Positions 1,607-9,812 of a DNA stretch of 36,981 nt are shown here, piece by piece. Within the stretch, counting starts at the first letter, position 1, and every line of letters starts with the position of its first letter. The stretch is from assembly GCA_045586685.1 (NCBI GenBank), contig JAZNAU010000018.1, positions 1-36,981 of the forward strand, written 5' to 3'. Position numbers and translations under genes: made by a program. This DNA is from Clostridia bacterium. GTDB taxonomy: Bacteria; Bacillota; Clostridia; HGM11514. The notes beneath the pieces were generated by a model. The model was given only the letters and a program-made list of their open reading frames with translations. It did no database searches and was not told where the DNA came from.

Positions 1607-2272
1607 TTATTTTCTTCTTTGTACAATATCATTTTGAGATTTTACGATGCTGTCCGAAGGATATACACCCCTTAGGGAAGTAAGGGGATATACAGAGGTG
1701 TTTTTTCCTAGCACCGTGCCCGGATTCAAAACACATCCGCAACCCACATCTGCACCATCTGCGAGTATTCCGCCAATTTTACGAATTCCTGTTTCATACT
1801 CCTTGTCCCCATGAATCACAACGGATTTTCCGTCTGATTTTAAATTTGAGCAAATGGAACCTGCTCCCATATGTGCACGATTACCAAGAATTGAATCGCC
1901 CACATAATTATAATGAGGCACTTGAACCTTTTCAAGGAGTACGCAGTTTTTCAGCTCGGATGAATTCCCTATCACGCAGTTTGGCCCTGTTATTACGGAG
2001 CCTCTTATAAATGCTCCGGGGCGTATTTCTGTCCCTTCTCCAATAATTGCAGGAGCTTCAATCACTGCTGTAGGATAGATTTTGACATTCTTCCCCACAT
2101 AAACACCCTCAGAAATTTCTGAAAAGCCTTCCAACCCATTTTCTATCAACTCATAGATATATGCCTTTATATGAGGCAACATTTCCCATGGATATTCGTA
2201 CTGTTCAAAAAACTTTGTCAGATAATCCGTTGTACAGTCAAACAAATCCTTTGTTTTGACAAGCTTATTCAA
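1607..2272 (-). CDS. GlmU-like glucosamine-1-phosphate N-acetyltransferase (left-handed beta-helix domain only)
   Basis: Hexapeptide repeats; PHYNYVGDS and GAGSICSN match GlmU acetyltransferase active-site motifs. No N-terminal GxGxR nucleotidyltransferase motif. Likely TTG start at 2272 after GGAGG, overlapping the glmM stop. Confidence 0.8.
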   Translation of the reverse strand: MNKLVKTKDLFDCTTDYLTKFFEQYEYPWEMLPHIKAYIYELIENGLEGFSEISEGVYVGKNVKIYPTAVIEAPAIIGEGTEIRPGAFIRGSVITGPNCVIGNSSELKNCVLLEKVQVPHYNYVGDSILGNRAHMGAGSICSNLKSDGKSVVIHGDKEYETGIRKIGGILADGADVGCGCVLNPGTVLGKNTSVYPLTSLRGVYPSDSIVKSQNDIVQRRK

Positions 2273-3884
2273 CGCTGTGCCCTCCCTTGATGATTTCATC
2301 CACAATCATTTGTGCGAACTCAACGCATTTTTCTTCACTTTCGCTTTCAATCATAACTCTGATAACCGGCTCTGTTCCGCTCTGACGAAGAAGTGCTCTT
2401 CCCTTGCCGGCAATCAACTCTTCCACTTTTTCTACGCTTTCCAGCACAGCTTTGTCCCGAAGCACCGCCGCTTTATCCTTGACTCGTACATTTTTCATAT
2501 ATTGGGGATAAAGTTTGACAGGAGCTGCAAGCTCTGCCAGAGAAAGCTTTGAATCGCATATTTCTTCTGCAATCATAATAGCAGTTAAAATACCGTCGCC
2601 TGTGGTTGCATGCTTTTTAAGTATGATATGTCCTGACTGTTCACCGCCGAGGGCATATCCCTTTTCTTGCATACATTCATAAACAAATCTGTCACCTACA
2701 GCTGTCTTTTCGCATTTTATACCCGCTTCTTCAAGACTGGCAAAAAAGCCGCTGTTTGACATAATGGTTGCAACCACTGTATCATGGTCAAGCATGCCTC
2801 TTGCTTTTAGTCTTTTTGCCAAAATGTAAAGCATCTTATCTCCATCCACGATTTCGCCATTGTTGTCTACTGCAATACATCTGTCGGCATCACCGTCAAA
2901 GGCAAAGCCTACATCAAGATGGTTCTCCTTTACAAGCTTGCACAAATTTTCAATATGAGTTGAACCGCAATTTTCGTTAACATTCAGTCCATTAGGCTCT
3001 GCACCGATTACTACAGTCTGTGCTCCCAATGCCCCAAACACCGATTTTGCTATCATCCATGACGACCCGTTTGCGCAATCAAGACCAATCTTTAAATTTT
3101 TATATGAATGAGATGCAATAGAAATAAGGTAACCAAGATATCGGTTTCTTCCTGATGAATAATCTGTAATACAACCGATTCTTTCTTTTGTGGCAAGAGG
3201 CAAATCATCTCCGGTAATACCGAGGGTTGCAAGGTCGCCGTCAAGATATGCTTCAATCAAAGCTGTTGTTTTATCGTCAAGCTTTTCTCCGTATTGATTG
3301 ATAATTTTAATACCATTGTCATAATAAGGATTGTGGGAGGCGGTTATCATAATTCCACAATCAAACCCCTCCTGCCGTGTCACATAAGAAACACTGGGAG
3401 TTGTTGTAACATGGAGCATATACGTATCTGCTGCCGAAGCTGTTATCCCTGCAACAATGGAATACTCAAGCATATAGCTTGACCTTCTCGTATCCTTACC
3501 AATCACAATTTTCGGTCTGTAGTTGCTCTTTTTACACCCTGAAAGCGGTGACGAATAATACCACCCTAAAAATCTGCCCACTTTATAGGCCTGCATTGAT
3601 GTCAAGGTTACGTTTGCCTCTCCTCTGAAACCGTCTGTGCCAAAATATTTATTCCCTTTCACTTTTTCGGTCTTTTGAGGAATGTTAACATCTTCAAGAA
3701 GAAGGCTGTCGGTTGAAATTTTAAAAAGTTCACACAACTGAAGAACTTTATCTATCTGCGGAAGGGCCTGGTCCATTTCCCATTTTGAAACTGACTGTCT
3801 GGAAACGTCAAGGTGCTCTGCCAACTGTTCCTGCGACAACCCCGCCATAATACGAAGATTTGCTATTTTTTCACCTATTTTCAT
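2265..3884 (-). CDS. glmM: phosphoglucosamine mutase with N-terminal XRE-family HTH domain
   Basis: N-terminus IANLRIMAGLSQEQLAEHLDVSRQSVSKWE is an XRE HTH. It is followed by YFGTDGFRG, phosphoserine loop TASHNP, metal loop DGDADR, GEQSGH and SGTEP. Confidence 0.92.
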   Translation of the reverse strand: MKIGEKIANLRIMAGLSQEQLAEHLDVSRQSVSKWEMDQALPQIDKVLQLCELFKISTDSLLLEDVNIPQKTEKVKGNKYFGTDGFRGEANVTLTSMQAYKVGRFLGWYYSSPLSGCKKSNYRPKIVIGKDTRRSSYMLEYSIVAGITASAADTYMLHVTTTPSVSYVTRQEGFDCGIMITASHNPYYDNGIKIINQYGEKLDDKTTALIEAYLDGDLATLGITGDDLPLATKERIGCITDYSSGRNRYLGYLISIASHSYKNLKIGLDCANGSSWMIAKSVFGALGAQTVVIGAEPNGLNVNENCGSTHIENLCKLVKENHLDVGFAFDGDADRCIAVDNNGEIVDGDKMLYILAKRLKARGMLDHDTVVATIMSNSGFFASLEEAGIKCEKTAVGDRFVYECMQEKGYALGGEQSGHIILKKHATTGDGILTAIMIAEEICDSKLSLAELAAPVKLYPQYMKNVRVKDKAAVLRDKAVLESVEKVEELIAGKGRALLRQSGTEPVIRVMIESESEEKCVEFAQMIVDEIIKGGHSVE

Positions 3885-3918
3885 TGATATCACCGCTCCT
3901 TATTCCTATATTATATTC

Positions 3919-4169: not shown

Positions 4170-4943
4170 TTAAAGTACAAGTAATCGAACCAAAGAATAT
4201 AATACTGACGGGCAAAGCAAACAACCTAAGCCTGTATAGAAAGTAGAGGTCATTGCACCATAGGGGACCAATTTAGGGTCAGTTGCAGCAAGAGCTGCTG
4301 TTACACCGCTGGTTGTTCCCATCAAACCGCCGAAAACCATTGCCGCACCAGGGGTGGTAAGCCCAATCTTCTTTTTTATCATGGGAGTCACAAGCATGAC
4401 GGCAATAGATTTAAATACTCCCGCAGCAATCGAAATTGCAATAACAGTTGAATCTGCCCCCACTGCTGCACCGGTAACAGGGCCAACAACAAACGTCACC
4501 GTACCTGCAGCGATTGTTGCTATGCTTTCAGCATCTCTGTATCCAAAAGCAAAAGTAATCAAAGCTCCGATAATAAATGTTAAAATAACACCGACTAAAA
4601 GAGAGGCAACCCCAATAAATCCGCATTTTTTAATTTCTGAAAATTTAGCGCCGTATGCTGTGGAAACAATGGTAAAATCACGAAGAGTAGAACTTCCCAA
4701 AATGCCAATTCCTGTAAAAACAGTTACATCAGCAAGTCCTTTTGAACCACCCGTCATCCGTCCTCCAACATATGCCAATATCAGTCCCATAAAAATGGCT
4801 AATGCAGAAGAGTGAATTCTGCCTTTGGTGACTTTGGTTGAGACAAAGTTGGCAAATAATGAGATAATTCCAACAATTAAAAACGACATTACAAATGCAT
4901 TATCTACAAATAAATCTACTATTATGTTTGCTATTTCTTTCAT
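4170..4943 (-). CDS. madM: malonate transporter subunit MadM
   Basis: Hydrophobic protein with GRIHSSALAI, GGSKGLAD, LRDFTIVSTAYG, FGGLMGTTSGV and LVPYGAMTSTFYTGLGCLL motifs typical of MadM; TAATG coupling to madL. Confidence 0.92.
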   Translation of the reverse strand: MKEIANIIVDLFVDNAFVMSFLIVGIISLFANFVSTKVTKGRIHSSALAIFMGLILAYVGGRMTGGSKGLADVTVFTGIGILGSSTLRDFTIVSTAYGAKFSEIKKCGFIGVASLLVGVILTFIIGALITFAFGYRDAESIATIAAGTVTFVVGPVTGAAVGADSTVIAISIAAGVFKSIAVMLVTPMIKKKIGLTTPGAAMVFGGLMGTTSGVTAALAATDPKLVPYGAMTSTFYTGLGCLLCPSVLYSLVRLLVL

Positions 4944-5326
4944 TATTTCGCCTCCGTTTCTTCATCAACGGCTTTCTTTGATGTAAATTTATTAAAAATG
5001 GGTAACAGTAAAAACATAATAAATACTACACCAACTCCTGCTACAAAAGCAAGAACTCCTCCATCCAATGCGCTGACAACATTTTGCGATGCTGACATTG
5101 CAATAACAACAGGAATAAACATTTCTTTCCAAAAATTAAGACCTTTTGTATACCCTTCCGGCAACTTATCGGTTATTTTTTTGGAGTTGGTAATCAGTAA
5201 AAGCAAGAGCATAGAAAAACCGACTCCGCCTATATCCGAGTTCAATCCCGTTAGAAGACCTAACAAATTTCCTATGAATGACCCTACCAGCATACAGCCG
5301 GACAAGATAGCCACTCCGTAAATCAT
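4943..5326 (-). CDS. madL: malonate transporter subunit MadL
   Basis: MIYGVAILSGC...IGGVGFSMLLL...FW..MFIPVVIAMSASQNVVSAL matches MadL. Start placed at ATG 5326. Confidence 0.9.
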   Translation of the reverse strand: MIYGVAILSGCMLVGSFIGNLLGLLTGLNSDIGGVGFSMLLLLLITNSKKITDKLPEGYTKGLNFWKEMFIPVVIAMSASQNVVSALDGGVLAFVAGVGVVFIMFLLLPIFNKFTSKKAVDEETEAK

Positions 5327-5388
5327 AACATACCATCCCTTTCCATTTTTATATATTATTGAAACAAACAAAAATATACATTACAGTT

Positions 5389-5417: not shown

Positions 5418-5522
5418 GTTTTTTTGCTCTTTAAGAAATATTTATCATAAATCTGAACATTTGCAACATACTTTGACGTATTTTAACAGTACATTTAGCT
5501 CGCCGTCAGGCAGATTTAGTTG

Positions 5523-5556
5523 AAAAAAGACAGATTTCAATGAAATCCGTCTTTTT
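5523..5556 (-). terminator. intrinsic terminator downstream of DUF4430 gene
   Basis: aaaaagacagatttc-aat-gaaatccgtcttttt stem-loop with U tract on the minus strand. Confidence 0.7.
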
Positions 5557-5561
5557 CCGGA

Positions 5562-5583
5562 AAAGCAGAACCATAAAGATATT
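5562..5583. repeat. 22-bp direct repeat, left boundary of B12 module
   Basis: aaagcagaaccataaagatatt, 21/22 identical to 9557-9578; abuts the stop codon at 5584. Confidence 0.85.
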
Positions 5584-6306
5584 TTATAAATCTTTTCCCA
5601 TGTTGCAAGTGTATAAGAACTCTATTTTATCTCCTTTTTTTAGTTTGTATTGAGAACATCCAACAGACAAGATTTCACCATTCACACGATATATCCATCC
5701 TGAGAGATTTCCCGCGTCAAATTCATATAAATTTCCTATGCCCTGTATATAAACACTGTCAAACATTGGATTTTTGGTAAATTCAAAATGTATGTTGCGA
5801 TTTTTTAGTTCTCTTTCCAAAACATCAAAAGCACTTTGGCCTTCTGAAAATTCAAACTCAATTTCAGGTAAAATCAATCCACTTTCAGGGATTAAATGTA
5901 TTTTTTCAGGAGCAATACGATCCATATTATCTAAAAGTGTATCACATCTTACTGTAAGGAAACAAGAAAGCGTGTTCTTTTCAACTGATTCTTCCTGAAT
6001 TTCTATCTCTTCATCACGCTCTGACGTTTCTAAAGGAGCTACAGGTGTAGGTGTTATGATCTCTTTTATCTCAGTTTCCGTATGGTCTGTTGTTTCAATC
6101 GGAACATCTTCATTAACAGGTATTATAATTTCTTGTGTTTGTGCAGATTCTACAGTTTCCTCCGTGAAATCTTCATTAACAGATTCATTTACCTGAACGT
6201 CTGTGCTTATATTTTGTGAATCAGGATAATAAAAGTTAATTGCCAGAACTATAGCAAATATCCCTATGACAACAATAGTACCCTTAAACTTTTTTATAAA
6301 ATTCAT
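5584..6306 (-). CDS. membrane-anchored DUF4430 (transcobalamin-like beta domain) protein
   Basis: N-terminal TM helix, acidic E/T-rich linker, C-terminal SAFDVL...YIQGIGNLYEFDAGNLSGWIYRVNG...GDKIEFLYT DUF4430 signature. Confidence 0.85.
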   Translation of the reverse strand: MNFIKKFKGTIVVIGIFAIVLAINFYYPDSQNISTDVQVNESVNEDFTEETVESAQTQEIIIPVNEDVPIETTDHTETEIKEIITPTPVAPLETSERDEEIEIQEESVEKNTLSCFLTVRCDTLLDNMDRIAPEKIHLIPESGLILPEIEFEFSEGQSAFDVLERELKNRNIHFEFTKNPMFDSVYIQGIGNLYEFDAGNLSGWIYRVNGEILSVGCSQYKLKKGDKIEFLYTCNMGKDL

Positions 6307-9083
6307 ATTAACTTTGCCTTTCCAAGCATTTTATATAACATAACTGCAATATCTTCTCGTGTTACATTCTTTTTAGGATTAACAAAGTTTCCATTATCCT
6401 CTAAAATTCCATCATTGATACAGTATCCCATAGAAGACATAGCCCACACCGATATGCTGTCAAAATCCTCAAAATTGTCCAGTATCTCTTCTGCTGCAGC
6501 TACATCTATATCAGTTTTTATACCGGAAAGTTTTGCCGCACGCTCAACCATTGCAGCAGCTTCTTCAAGTGTGATTGTGCCTTGCGGATTAAACTCGCTG
6601 TGGGAAACACCTTTTACAATCCCGTAATGATATGCAGTTTTGATGTATGGCGCATACCATTCTTCAGCCTTTACATCTTCAAATTCCATGCCATCTTTTT
6701 GCGGAAGTCCCAATGCATTCACGATTATCGTTGCAAATTCTGCTCTTGTCATTGTAGCATAAGGGTCATAGCTTTCTTCTGTTTTTCCGTTTATTATGCC
6801 TCTTTCACAAAGAGCCTCAATTTCAGCTTTTCCTGTGCAATTTACAATGTCAGCAAAAGTTTTTCCTTTACTAATAACTTCTTTATATGTAATATCTTCA
6901 TTCTTTCCATCAAGACCAAATTCTGTTTTGGTATCATCATAATTGGAAGTGTCTTCTTTTTCTTCCTGTGAGCCACGTTCCTTTGTATAGTCATCCGTAT
7001 AGTACCACACAACTGTCGAATTTTTTGTCAGCCTTGTTTCACGGCAGCTTGTATTTTTGTATTTTCCATCAACTATAAACATCCAGCCTGAACGTGGTCC
7101 GTGGTCGAATTCGCCGTATCCGCCAATTTCGGAAACATATCCGTCAGCTTCAGTGAAGTCAACGCCTTCATCATCAAGAGCTTTTAAAAGAGCATCATAA
7201 ACAGTGTCGTTTTTATCTATGGTAACTTTTGTTGATACTAACGCATTGTATTTAGAAGCATTATTTTTATAAGTATATCCGTTTTCACAGTCATCGTCAT
7301 GAACCATTACCTTTACATTCACACGAATTTTACTTGAAACCGAATCGACACCTGACGAAATCTGTCTTTGATTCACTGTAATTTTACATACTGCAGGAAC
7401 AATATTTTTTGCTTCGGTATATGCTACTGCATAATATGTGCCAGTCCGAGACTGTGAAGTTGAAATTTCTACTTTGCCATCTTCATCGGTAGTAAGAACC
7501 TCGGCTGTAGTTCCTAAAAGCATAATTTTTGCACCTGCATAAGGAGATGAAATCTGATTCCAATTTTCATCATACCCAAGAGCATTTAATGTCAGTGTAA
7601 CGGAAGAACCTTTATCTACCGATACTGTATTTTCGCTAAAGTATGAATAAGCATCACTCCAGTACGTTGTGTCGTAATAATTAAATGCAGTGAGATAGTC
7701 ACCATCGCTTACAACATCGTGCAAGCTCCAACAACTTGTATTGTTTAAGTAATAACCGGAAGCCGCCGAAACTCCGGGTGTACCTTTACCCCAAAGAATT
7801 GCAAGAGACAAGCCGTAGTCACCAACAAAAGTGCTATAACCTGTTTCTGCACCGCCGTCGTATAGAGCTTCGTGTGTTGCATATAAAGCCTCATCAACGG
7901 TAAGTGTGCCATTTCTGTCCCGGTCAGAAACTGTCACCTTTGCCTGCGCAACATATTCTCCATTTTTGTCAGTAACAATATCTCCGTCATCCACGATGGT
8001 CACAAATACATCAACAGGCTCAGCCTCATTTTCTTCAGGAGCAGGGTCTTGTGTGCCCGCTAGGTCATTATATGCTTGACCGTCTGTGCCAAAGTCCCAG
8101 TATAAAACACTATCCTTGTGAATCTTTCTGTATGCATCATATGCCTGCATAATCTGATATGTGGCAAGTGTATTAACAGAATCTCCAAAAAGGTAGCCGT
8201 TTCCTTCGGTATTATGGTAACTTTCAAGAGAAGTAATAATATTTTCCTGTTCGTCAGCACCAAAACCGTTAGCAGGGTCAGTGACATCAATTCCAAGAGT
8301 AGAAAGCGTCAATAAAACTTGTGCCGTAGTATTCGGATTATCGTCATAATCCCAATCCTCAGAAATAGTGTCTCTAAGGAAAACAATGGCTTTATCAATG
8401 GCGGTTTCTACGGCTGGTTCATCTTTATATGGAGCTAGAGCTTGTACACAGATTGCAGTCATATCAACATCTGTATTTTCTGTGTCAAACAAACCAAAGC
8501 CGCCACTTTCTGTCTGGAATGTCAAAAGCCTATTAACAATATCACTTTTACTCCATGTAGCATCTTGCGGAATTTCTGCGCCTGAAGCATAAAGTGCTAA
8601 AAGAGAATATGCAAGTTCGTTTGTTCCGCTTTCAAGTTGGGTACTATTGCAAATAAAATTGATTAGATTAAGGCCTTCAATATCTGCAGGGTTCATATCC
8701 ATAACGGTAAAAGCAATTACTGCTTTTGCTGCATCTGTAGGCTTAACATTTGCATGCCAGCCTTTAACAGTTTCTTTTAAAGAACAGGTGTATTCTTCAA
8801 GAATAGAAGAAGTAACGCTTTTTTTGCCGCGAAGCAATGTTATAATAGCCCAATCAGAGCCAAATCCAACGCCCGAATCATTATGCATTTCTGTCAGTTT
8901 TTCGCTGAGGTACGCTTCTGCACTTCCGATGCCCCGACTTATGACATCATAGATGTCGCCTTCTGCAACCTCGCAACTGTCTGCAAGGCAATCTGTCATT
9001 TGCACGCTTGCGAGTGATACTGTTGATGTACCGATAATTATAACTATCGACAACAACAAGCATAAAAGTTTTTTGAATTTCAT
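6303..9083 (-). CDS. S-layer-homology (3xSLH) surface protein with prenyltransferase-like alpha-barrel and DUF4430 domains; probable cobamide-binding protein
   Basis: Signal peptide MKFKKLLCLL...; Q..SGGFG..DVDMTAICVQAL alpha-barrel repeats; YVSEIGGYGEFD..SGWMFIVDG (DUF4430); three SLH repeats (e.g. GIING...TRAEFA). RBS AAAGGA before ATG 9083. Confidence 0.85.
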   Translation of the reverse strand: MKFKKLLCLLLSIVIIIGTSTVSLASVQMTDCLADSCEVAEGDIYDVISRGIGSAEAYLSEKLTEMHNDSGVGFGSDWAIITLLRGKKSVTSSILEEYTCSLKETVKGWHANVKPTDAAKAVIAFTVMDMNPADIEGLNLINFICNSTQLESGTNELAYSLLALYASGAEIPQDATWSKSDIVNRLLTFQTESGGFGLFDTENTDVDMTAICVQALAPYKDEPAVETAIDKAIVFLRDTISEDWDYDDNPNTTAQVLLTLSTLGIDVTDPANGFGADEQENIITSLESYHNTEGNGYLFGDSVNTLATYQIMQAYDAYRKIHKDSVLYWDFGTDGQAYNDLAGTQDPAPEENEAEPVDVFVTIVDDGDIVTDKNGEYVAQAKVTVSDRDRNGTLTVDEALYATHEALYDGGAETGYSTFVGDYGLSLAILWGKGTPGVSAASGYYLNNTSCWSLHDVVSDGDYLTAFNYYDTTYWSDAYSYFSENTVSVDKGSSVTLTLNALGYDENWNQISSPYAGAKIMLLGTTAEVLTTDEDGKVEISTSQSRTGTYYAVAYTEAKNIVPAVCKITVNQRQISSGVDSVSSKIRVNVKVMVHDDDCENGYTYKNNASKYNALVSTKVTIDKNDTVYDALLKALDDEGVDFTEADGYVSEIGGYGEFDHGPRSGWMFIVDGKYKNTSCRETRLTKNSTVVWYYTDDYTKERGSQEEKEDTSNYDDTKTEFGLDGKNEDITYKEVISKGKTFADIVNCTGKAEIEALCERGIINGKTEESYDPYATMTRAEFATIIVNALGLPQKDGMEFEDVKAEEWYAPYIKTAYHYGIVKGVSHSEFNPQGTITLEEAAAMVERAAKLSGIKTDIDVAAAEEILDNFEDFDSISVWAMSSMGYCINDGILEDNGNFVNPKKNVTREDIAVMLYKMLGKAKLI

Positions 9084-9116
9084 TTTTTCAATTCCTTTCT
9101 TTTTTGCCGAACAAAT

Positions 9117-9159
9117 AAAAAAGCTACGGCAATTTTTGTTGTAAAAAATCACCACAGCT
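9117..9159 (-). terminator. riboswitch expression-platform attenuator
   Basis: Minus strand agctgtggtgattttt-tacaac-aaaaattgccgtagct followed by a U run, between aptamer and RBS. Confidence 0.65.
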
Positions 9160-9261
9160 GAGTTTTCCTGTGAGTATCACAATTTGCATCAAAGAATAGA
9201 GCTCCAGATATTTTTGGATACAAAAACATTATTCCTATGCAAATGAGCACGTACGGAATAA

Positions 9262-9462
9262 CATCAAAGCAGGTCTTGTGACTCGCATCATATAGACAAT
9301 ATAGTCTGCATTTTCATATCCCGCCTTCTCAGTTTCCCAATGACTATCTTTCGATAATGGATATAAAAACTTCAATGCATACACCGACAGTTATCGTCCA
9401 GGATTCGCACCTGATTCCCTTTTCACCGACCATACCTAAGCGGTATAATCAACACTTTGTGT
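9262..9462 (-). ncRNA. cobalamin riboswitch
   Basis: Minus strand tgaaaagggaatcaggtgcgaatcctgg...cggtgta...cattgggaaactgagaaggc...gagtcacaagacctgc (B12 box); P1 caaag/ctttg. Confidence 0.93.
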
Positions 9463-9485
9463 GAGTTATTAAATTTTACTTAATT

Positions 9486-9514
9486 ATTATAGCATAGTAT
9501 TTTTTTAAAGTCAA
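9486..9514 (-). promoter_or_regulatory. sigma-A type promoter of riboswitch operon
   Basis: TTGACT (9514-9509), 17-bp spacer, TG-n-TATAAT (9491-9486). Confidence 0.85.
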
Positions 9515-9556
9515 TAAAAATATAAATCCTATTTTTAGGCAAAATTTTATTATGAG

Positions 9557-9578
9557 AAAGCAGAACCATAGAGATATT
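9557..9578. repeat. 22-bp direct repeat, right boundary of B12 module
   Basis: aaagcagaaccatagagatatt, 21/22 identical to 5562-5583. Confidence 0.85.
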
Positions 9579-9611
9579 AAAATTTTGTTTTGCATAAGCA
9601 AAACTACCTTA

Positions 9612-9704
9612 ACTTCTTCCTTATTCACTATTACCTATTACTTTCCAACAAATCCGTACTCAAATATTTTGAAGGAATAGTGAAGAGTGAATAGATAATA
9701 AGTA
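9612..9704. repeat. degenerate inverted heptamer-repeat element
   Basis: Left arm ttattca-ctattac-ctattac and right arm gaatagt-gaagagt-gaataga-taataag are roughly complementary. Confidence 0.5.
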
Positions 9705-9735
9705 AAAATCCGCACACTTTCGTGTACGGATTTTT
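9704..9735 (-). terminator. terminator of tRNA-Arg / glycosyltransferase operon
   Basis: aaaaatccgcacac-tttc-gtgtacggattttt immediately after the tRNA CCA. Confidence 0.8.
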
Positions 9736-9812
9736 TGGTACGCCTGACGCGATTCGAACGCACGACCTTCAGAGTCGGAGTCTGACGCTCTATCCAACTG
9801 AGCTACAGGCGC
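9736..9812 (-). tRNA. tRNA-Arg(CCG)
   Basis: gcgcctgtagctcagttggatagagcgtcagact-CCG-actctgaaggtcgtgcgttcgaatcgcgtcaggcgtacca; cloverleaf, 77 nt, encoded CCA. Confidence 0.97.

Follow-up and report, generated by a model that had tools for sequence, protein, structure and literature searches.

A cobalamin-riboswitch operon framed by a 22-bp direct repeat in a putative composite islet at a tRNA-Arg gene of a Clostridia bacterium

Introduction

A 36,981-nucleotide contig from a Clostridia bacterium (GenBank JAZNAU010000018.1, assembly GCA_045586685.1), referred to here in its entirety as the window, carries two minus-strand genes behind a cobalamin riboswitch, and this operon is enclosed by two directly repeated copies of a 22-bp sequence, the 22-mer, next to a gene for tRNA-Arg. 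The initial annotation of this DNA saw in the two copies the att-like sites of a mobile, integron-like cassette. The question raised by the locus is whether the 22-mer represents a pair of cut sites that belong to this one cassette or a mark of a more general kind. We read it as a shared end-mark of tRNA-linked modules in gut Clostridia and not as a private cut-site pair. On balance, we favor an interpretation in which positions 5562 to 9735 form a recombinase-less composite islet that is stacked at the 3' end of the tRNA-Arg(CCG) gene, with the 22-mer marking the tRNA-distal end of members of the family.

Results

The left copy, AAAGCAGAACCATAAAGATATT, and the right copy, AAAGCAGAACCATAGAGATATT, are identical at 21 of 22 positions (Table 1). 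They are the only matches to the 22-mer in the window at up to three mismatches, and they make up the sole direct-repeat pair of at least 95% identity between positions 4500 and 10,500; none of 100 dinucleotide-preserving shuffles contained any match. The pair bounds a promoter, the riboswitch, a probable attenuator, and two genes, all on the minus strand, just as was originally described. Because the stop codon of the last gene occupies positions 5584 to 5586, the left copy adjoins it with zero spacing, as was also noted at the outset, and the minus-strand order at this end is stop codon, 22-mer, TCCGG, and terminator. The one differing base is at position 15, where the left copy has an A, the same as the operon-linked copy in genome G383, and the right copy has a G, the same as the array-linked copies in genomes G069 and G050.

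Comparison with relatives supports the conclusion, drawn from sequence, that the operon is a horizontally moving block, absent from the tRNA-Arg locus of the closest relative and found as high-identity copies in distant genomes. That relative, G001, is 86 to 88% identical to the window over 10.8 to 30.7 kb. Its genes for a phosphoglucosamine-mutase-like protein (PGM; 94% amino acid identity) and an epimerase (96%) are separated by ≈520 nt, which hold a terminator, one 22-mer (AAAGCAAAACCATAAAGATATT), an array built on the word AGCTAAAT, a further terminator, and tRNA-Arg, with neither MadLM nor the operon. The window keeps the tail of a G001-type array to the left of its left 22-mer, and positions 5446 to 5556 align locally with the array tail and terminator beside tRNA-Arg in G001; from the retained tail, it follows that, relative to G001, the segment running from the left 22-mer to the terminator of the type-B array (about positions 5561 to 9735) lies exactly between the older terminator and the 3' end of tRNA-Arg. 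Synteny with six genomes of the genus ends at the 3' end of this tRNA gene.

Six genomes bear the operon, namely G000 (the genome of the window), G041, G075, G079, G293, and G383. Identity to the window is 78 to 85% in G041 (over positions 5562–9532), 82 to 85% in G075, 78 to 83% in G383, 75% in G079, and 68 to 81% in G293; the background identity of G041, G075, and G383 to the window is much lower, with G041 aligning to the neighboring 20 kb in only two segments of 67 to 68%. In G041, G075, and G383, homology of the operon begins at window positions 5561 to 5563, at most 1 to 2 nt from the outer edge of the left 22-mer, and the terminator next to the 22-mer of the operon is different in each of four genomes. 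A full right-hand 22-mer upstream of the promoter is found in G000 alone of the six. A candidate decayed right copy in G041 has an alignment score of 26, which was equalled by 24 of 1000 shuffles, and in G383, the operon is flanked by a 22-mer on one side and, on the other, by an array lacking one. Homologous operons with an RF00174 aptamer upstream of DUF4430 proteins occur in G013, G037, G006, G008, G010, and G011, and no direct repeats at 13 of 14 or better flank those of G013 and G037. Contigs from the one public run, a bovine gut metagenome (word share 0.09), gave fragmentary cover by a relative with no joints and were uninformative on circles, empty sites, and expression; a search of metagenome contigs with the larger protein of the operon matched 36 pattern stretches, none of which was confirmed.

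The 22-mer is not confined to this locus. The genome of the window (1.55 Mb) has four copies of the 22-mer at up to three mismatches, with none for the reversed control, and a fifth at four mismatches. Among 401 genomes drawn evenly from the class, the 22-mer at no more than one mismatch is found in 35, at 53 sites, compared with one site for the reversed control. Its occurrence is patchy, with two of the seven genomes of the genus of the window carrying it and no copies in the 98%-complete G006. A scan of species representatives (one genome per species) with a degenerate exact pattern returned at least 118 loci, about 70 of which are expected by chance from the degeneracy of the pattern by our own arithmetic; the matches outside Clostridia look like chance, many of them lying within coding sequence.

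In the metagenome-assembled genomes (MAGs) of Clostridia, the motif has a recurrent context of terminator hairpin, T-run, and (C/T)TGGG, with the 22-mer coming immediately after it, a consensus that is partly circular in that it was taken from 44 loci picked for a T-run plus G just upstream. The usual distance from the 22-mer to the 3' end of a tRNA on the opposite strand is 140 to 400 nt. Among the matches listed, 27 of 118 have a minus-strand tRNA 73 to 553 nt downstream of the 22-mer, mostly at 174 to 260 nt. A second form, also among the matches listed (11 of 118), has a plus-strand tRNA that ends 3 nt upstream of a variant 22-mer (...CCAAAGAGATATA), and conserved island genes follow these tRNA-proximal, or class-1, sites. 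On the contigs with class-1 sites in five genomes, a second 22-mer was found in none, and most of these islands run off their contigs; an assignment of ArdA in one of them was discarded, the match being below the Pfam cut-off. For a further sample, 12 regions were fetched and two (L245 and L249) that ended within 1 kb were dropped; seven of the remaining ten sites have a minus-strand tRNA at 138 to 400 nt. Convergent gene ends lie 58 to 88 nt from the motif in five of ten loci examined.

The reading of the 22-mer as a tRNA-distal end-mark comes from one island with resolved ends and two elements that encode recombinases. The island, in G102 (contig C12, locus L222), extends 10.3 kb after tRNA-Gln. 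Its left, tRNA-side end reads ...GTTCGGCAACCACG|AAAGCCGAACCAAAAAGATAT and its right, far end ...ATATCTCAATG|GTTCGGCAACCACG, so that 14 nt of the tRNA 3' end are directly repeated at the two ends, and inverted 22-mers lie immediately internal to them. The island has the genes of a defense island (an HTH_17 protein, Fic, an SLFN/AlbA_2 protein, a C5 methylase, and GHKL ATPases), and a close relative, G476, has the same tRNA-Gln and downstream gene (86% identity) with the island absent. The first recombinase element, on contig C12 of G041, is ≈7 kb long and starts after tRNA-Arg(CCT). It encodes a 517-residue protein with Resolvase, Recombinase, and Zn_ribbon_recom domains, followed by a ResIII helicase-like protein, a zeta-toxin-like protein, a type-B array (described below), a reverse 22-mer, and a terminator, and its distal end is 87% identical over 58 to 60 nt to window positions 9553 to 9610. 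The second, on contig C2 of G383, has serine-recombinase open reading frames (ORFs) of 516 and 547 residues and then a reverse 22-mer. The attachment sites of large serine recombinases consist of two imperfect inverted half-sites, about 20 to 24 bp each, around a short crossover, and the geometry of the 22-mer would fit such half-sites, the size of which we take as ≈22 bp. Since the 22-mer closes serine-recombinase elements and forms the inverted ends of one island, an att-like role is plausible, and the 22-mer is probably a recombinase half-site within the attachment site of integrative islets. The proposal of att-like sites thus stands in part: the block moves and the role is plausible, but the two copies in the window are not a dedicated attL and attR, both being of the tRNA-distal type.

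The usual content between a 22-mer and its tRNA is a hairpin array of ≈190 nt, in which a short word is repeated roughly four times in forward orientation and then a further four or so times in reverse complement, interspersed with small hairpins. The word varies between copies (CATGAATTG, CGATAT, AGCTAAAT, or ATGAAAT), and 31 arrays are linked by blastn. Compared with shuffles, the arrays fold far more stably on both strands (z-scores of −5 to −6), and compensatory changes are found in 18 of 51 predicted pairs among 11 aligned copies. At four loci with 22-mers and arrays, Rfam at E values up to 1 returned only tRNAs, the cobalamin aptamer, and sub-threshold noise. Tetraloops on the 22-mer strand are of the form G..A in 38 cases and T..C in 11, a count that is only a hint of the array strand because the copies are related. 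The right 22-mer of the window heads a shorter, type-B array, with copies elsewhere in the same genome (C9:73263, C25, C30, C34, and C39) and in relatives, as well as in G069, G050, and G085; the 22-mer and type-B array together are 91% identical beside a different tRNA in G069.

Two observations on the neighborhood of the arrays are recorded here in their own right. A second motif, CTGG-AAGAACCSAATGGTTTAGATGCC, follows array terminators (C9:49545–49570 of the same genome, G085:C1, G001:C64, L088, and G383:C9) and has AAG..AACC..TAGAT in common with the 22-mer. The terminator hairpins around the modules (window 5522–5559; L048, L053, L074, L089, L092, and others) fall into a few recurring sequence families, which flank 22-mers and arrays on one side or the other, as though terminators too were exchangeable modules.

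Alternative cargo at 22-mer sites, which had been suggested as something to search for, was found. One slot in G177 holds a 6.9-kb defense set (an Mrr-type nuclease, an AbiJ/kinase protein, and an IS3-type transposase), one in G236 holds an AraC/GyrI-type regulator and a PF05635 protein, and some hold hairpin arrays only. A slot in the genome of the window itself (C9:48800–53600, locus L250) has a 22-mer, an array, a three-gene minus-strand operon behind a thiamine pyrophosphate (TPP) riboswitch (61.2 bits), a second array, and two tRNAs. At another tRNA cluster of this genome (C20:39622–39849), we observed a full 22-mer and a 190-nt array where the orthologous locus of G001 (C126:12500–12640; flanks 91% identical) has only AAAAGCAGAA and 55 nt ahead of its terminator, with the indel breakpoint falling within the 22-mer.

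Several other identities for the 22-mer were considered and set aside. It is distinct from the 3' end of the tRNA-Arg gene at positions 9736 to 9812, in agreement with the initial annotation, and direct reading against a tRNA 3' fragment or T-arm mimic gave no complementary T-stem and a CCA in the wrong register. A transposon target-site duplication was rejected for want of terminal inverted repeats inside the two copies in the window; 22 bp also exceeds the usual lengths of such duplications. As a promoter, the 22-mer was compared by eye with consensus sequences for sigma-70, sigma-54, sigma-D, sporulation sigma factors, and extracytoplasmic function sigma factors, none of which fits. A Xer/dif-type site was rejected because neither the 22-mer nor its consensus flanks have dyad symmetry, and the 22-mer is not palindromic. 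A text search of the literature, limited to the exact string GAACCATAGAGATAT, found no occurrence.

The cargo of the unit consists of two surface-protein genes. In the 927-residue protein, Pfam identifies SLH (E value 1.7e-23) and DUF4430 (3.6e-15) domains, and residues 740 to 919 match the S-layer proteins Sap and SbsB in the PDB (4.5e-14 to 1.7e-12). The 240-residue protein has 88% amino acid identity over 98 residues to its counterpart in G041. The hairpin between the aptamer and the first gene is likely the expression platform of the riboswitch, that is, an attenuator. With DUF4430 presumably linked to B12 binding, the operon would serve to capture cobalamin at the cell surface and would be shut off by B12 through the riboswitch. 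The guanine and cytosine content at third codon positions (GC3) is 22 to 29% in the operon genes and 37 to 43% in the flanking core genes.

MadL, MadM, and then the PGM gene are the left-hand neighbors of the operon, and the epimerase gene lies on its right. The terminator at the left edge is part of the older unit and, read on the minus strand, ends the operon; a simple terminator scan, in which at least three G-C pairs are required, did not pick it up. The MadM/MadL malonate-transporter pair (positions 4170–5371; GC3 29–34%) is missing at the G001 locus and has copies in unrelated contexts in G041 (74% identity) and G037 (69%); it is probably a separate acquisition, further out than the operon. 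The PGM-like protein (positions 2265–3893) has an N-terminal HTH_3 domain (Pfam E value 9.8e-13), an unusual fusion.

Table 1. Features of the tRNA-Arg locus, with the hairpin arrays of the same genome. Positions are those of the window except where a contig is named.
Feature	Position	Strand	Remarks
22-mer, left copy	5562..5583	+	Putative distal end-mark of the operon unit; at 3' end of the operon in G041 and G383, variant in G075
22-mer, right copy	9557..9578	+	Putative distal end-mark of the inner hairpin-array unit trailing tRNA-Arg
Promoter TTGACT-17-TATAAT with TG	9514..9486	-	Predicted by consensus scan only; sigma-70-like, 11/12 matches
Cobalamin riboswitch aptamer	9251-9474	-	RF00174, 54.3 bits (gathering score 31.5); full model, 1-189 of 189
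Terminator-like hairpin	9159..9122	-	16-pair stem then T-run, downstream of aptamer
Gene for 927-aa surface protein	6303-9086	-	Signal-like N terminus, DUF4430, C-terminal SLH wall-anchor domains
Gene for 240-aa protein	5584-6306	-	N-terminal hydrophobic segment, C-terminal DUF4430 (PF14478, E value 9.7e-18)
tRNA-Arg (CCG)	9736-9812	-	Anchor of the putative stack
Terminator right after tRNA-Arg	9704..9735	-	14 pairs then T-run
Type-B structured array	9579..9703	+	Dispersed repeat; copies in the same genome and others
Bidirectional intrinsic terminator	5522..5559	both	A-run, hairpin GACAGATTTC/GAAATCCGTC, T-run; read directly
Older hairpin-array tail, AGCTAAAT-word type	5487..5521	+	Homologous to the array directly trailing tRNA-Arg in G001
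Hairpin arrays of the same genome	C9:49320-49545, C9:52955-53145, C20:39622-39827, C42:34354-34520, C47:21465-21583		

Discussion

In the composite-islet reading that we favor, the order of the locus in the sense of the tRNA (minus strand) would be tRNA-Arg and its terminator, the type-B array, the right 22-mer, the operon, the left 22-mer, and the older terminator with its array remnant. Each unit landing behind the tRNA would bring or keep one 22-mer, and two stacked units would for this reason give a direct repeat. A large serine recombinase supplied in trans would integrate such units, and the stack may have been built by successive site-specific events, that is, by tandem accretion. The operon unit would now be fixed, or mobile only with outside help, and the array-only units may belong to a family of integrative elements as its miniature or gutted forms.

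A number of observations weigh against this interpretation. The contig of the window has no match to PF00589 or PF00239, in line with the earlier statement that the window lacks an integrase; transposases, which the statement also covered, were not scanned for. In the genome as a whole, which is 97% complete, we found two full tyrosine recombinases of Xer-like size (304 and 319 residues) and two small serine-recombinase ORFs (200 and 234 residues). A serine recombinase lies beside the 22-mer at only two loci, G041:C12 and G383:C2; ten further sites, examined over up to 12 kb, had none, and no recombinase was found in the G102 island. This island is the only one with both ends resolved, and no 22-mer partner lies at the tRNA-proximal end of the array units or of the stack in the window. 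A search of the 401 genomes for palindromic junctions (reverse 22-mer, spacer, 22-mer) gave nothing beyond three simple hairpins, compared with two control matches. The 22-mer always stands beside a terminator, which would also fit a role in transcription or RNA, and the genomes are fragmented MAGs in which many sites lie at contig ends.

One alternative, and an unlikely one in our estimation, is that a single excisable cassette recombines at the two direct 22-mers, in which case a circle of the operon with one 22-mer entered a resident 22-mer by a single crossover and could leave in the same way with an enzyme encoded elsewhere. The window does look like a canonical module, in the order terminator, 22-mer, array, terminator, and tRNA, into which precisely the cargo and one 22-mer have been set, and the A/G split at position 15 separates the lineage linked to cargo from that linked to arrays, which is what a crossover within the first 14 nt predicts, but this pattern equally fits two units that arrived independently. 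The possible decayed second copy in G041 lies at the matching place, and in G075 and G079, an AAAGC is found close to where homology ends on the right; five of the six operon-bearing genomes, however, lack a full right copy. No circle- or attP-type junction turned up in any of the 401 genomes, and a homology of 22 bp is little for RecA-dependent recombination. Nor do large serine integrases usually act on a pair of like half-sites in direct order.

A role unrelated to mobility appears improbable, although the fusion of the 22-mer to a bidirectional terminator at near-fixed spacing would suit a host signal, whether a 3' untranslated region (UTR) or RNA-stability element, an aid to termination, or a promoter of array RNA, with two neighboring units simply carrying one each. 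On the minus strand the 22-mer falls in the 3' UTRs of several unrelated genes, convergent gene ends lie near it as described above, and the arrays that it often heads resemble structured RNAs. A host signal sits poorly with the patchy occurrence within the genus, with its occurrence in either direction relative to transcription (11 loci have it in sense directly after tRNAs, and it is antisense elsewhere), and with the inverted pair at the ends of the G102 island; at neither copy in the window did the consensus scan call a sigma-70-like promoter. We give little credence to a process with no dedicated enzyme, in which 22-mers, arrays, and terminator hairpins would be dispersed repeats offering short homology for occasional homologous or homology-facilitated illegitimate recombination that shuffles modules and imported operons. 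The intergenic regions are indeed mosaics of recurring modules with breakpoints at module edges, the terminator beside the operon differs from genome to genome, and contigs of relatives often break at these repeats. These homologies are nonetheless short, at 22 nt or less, and the association with tRNA 3' ends, the 14-nt tRNA repeat at one island, and the serine-recombinase elements point instead to site-specific integration.

Among known systems, integron cassettes and CALIN arrays (clusters of attC sites lacking integron integrases) offer recombinase-less cassettes in series with one site each at the same end, and they are mostly promoterless. The original comparison with integrons is not upheld, in that the locus has no attC-type imperfect palindrome, GTTRRRY core, or inverted-repeat partner, carries its own promoter and riboswitch, and is anchored at a tRNA and not at attI; no IntI-type PF00589 match was found on the contig. 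Xer-dependent modules (integrative mobile elements exploiting Xer, IMEX, and pdif modules) likewise have no recombinase of their own and are moved by host enzymes at short bounding sites. The dif site, however, is 28 bp long with two 11-bp dyad arms and a 6-bp spacer, a layout that the 22-mer does not share; the likeness lies in recombinase-less modules and in the presence of two Xer-sized tyrosine recombinases in the genome. Relative to the cobalamin-riboswitch DUF4430 operons of Firmicutes, the operon has the same aptamer and DUF4430, and it differs in lying in a tRNA-linked islet with a 22-mer adjoining the stop codon.

The closest parallels described are islands and decayed elements in other bacteria. 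In Dehalococcoides, several tandem islands, with cis-mobilizable members, are stacked downstream of one small-RNA gene, ssrA, and are bounded by a repeat of ≈20 bp with an adjacent conserved, element-derived motif; intact islands encode a large serine recombinase of ≈540 residues, and accretion has been proposed, some members being without integration genes (PMC3146451). Stacking, a repeat of ≈20 bp, recombinase-less members, and metabolic-operon cargo are common to these islands and the present locus, but the ssrA repeat copies the 3' end of its target (PMC3146451), whereas the 22-mer does not derive from a tRNA and is associated with many different tRNAs. A further difference from the ssrA islands is that most units here are miniature hairpin arrays of ≈200 nt, with no integration module in or near the window. 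Streptococcal cis-mobilizable elements (CIMEs), as described in PMC5704250, are decayed, without integrase or transfer genes, and persist at the 3' end of a target gene between repeats of att type, where they are stacked with other integrative elements, either conjugative (ICEs) or mobilizable (IMEs), and can be mobilized by the recombinase of a relative. Similarly, our unit stands at a tRNA 3' end in a variable region, has no recombination or transfer genes of its own, and has autonomous relatives with the same ends (G041:C12 and G383:C2). CIMEs by definition keep both an attL and an attR derived from the target gene (PMC5704250), whereas only distal-type sites in direct order are found here, and the enzyme class here is likely a serine rather than a tyrosine recombinase. 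We do not place the islet among CIMEs because its repeats are not copies of the target gene end and both are of the same type.

Overall, we regard the locus as a decayed tRNA-linked composite islet that carries a B12-capture operon, with a presumed enzyme and at most a conjectural present-day mobility; should the 22-mer be no more than a scar, this would be an ordinary decayed islet of the tRNA-linked kind. Vitamin scavenging shapes competition in the gut, and one small genome here has both a B12-capture operon and a TPP-riboswitch operon in exchangeable slots behind tRNA genes under the same 22-bp mark. If the 22-mer is a working recombination site, it would give a sequence handle for imported cargo in fragmented MAGs, would point to natural pairs of serine-integrase sites and enzymes, and would explain the assembly breaks at tRNA loci of these organisms. 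We further propose, tentatively and with more doubt than confidence, that a cassette system exists at tRNA 3' ends of gut Clostridia, in which recombinase-less units with one common 22-bp half-site are moved across orders by large serine recombinases in trans. Its units may comprise structured hairpin-array RNAs, vitamin-riboswitch operons (for B12 and, on another contig, thiamine), and defense genes. Such a system, if real, would be an integron-like platform for gene capture that uses a different enzyme and a different anchor.

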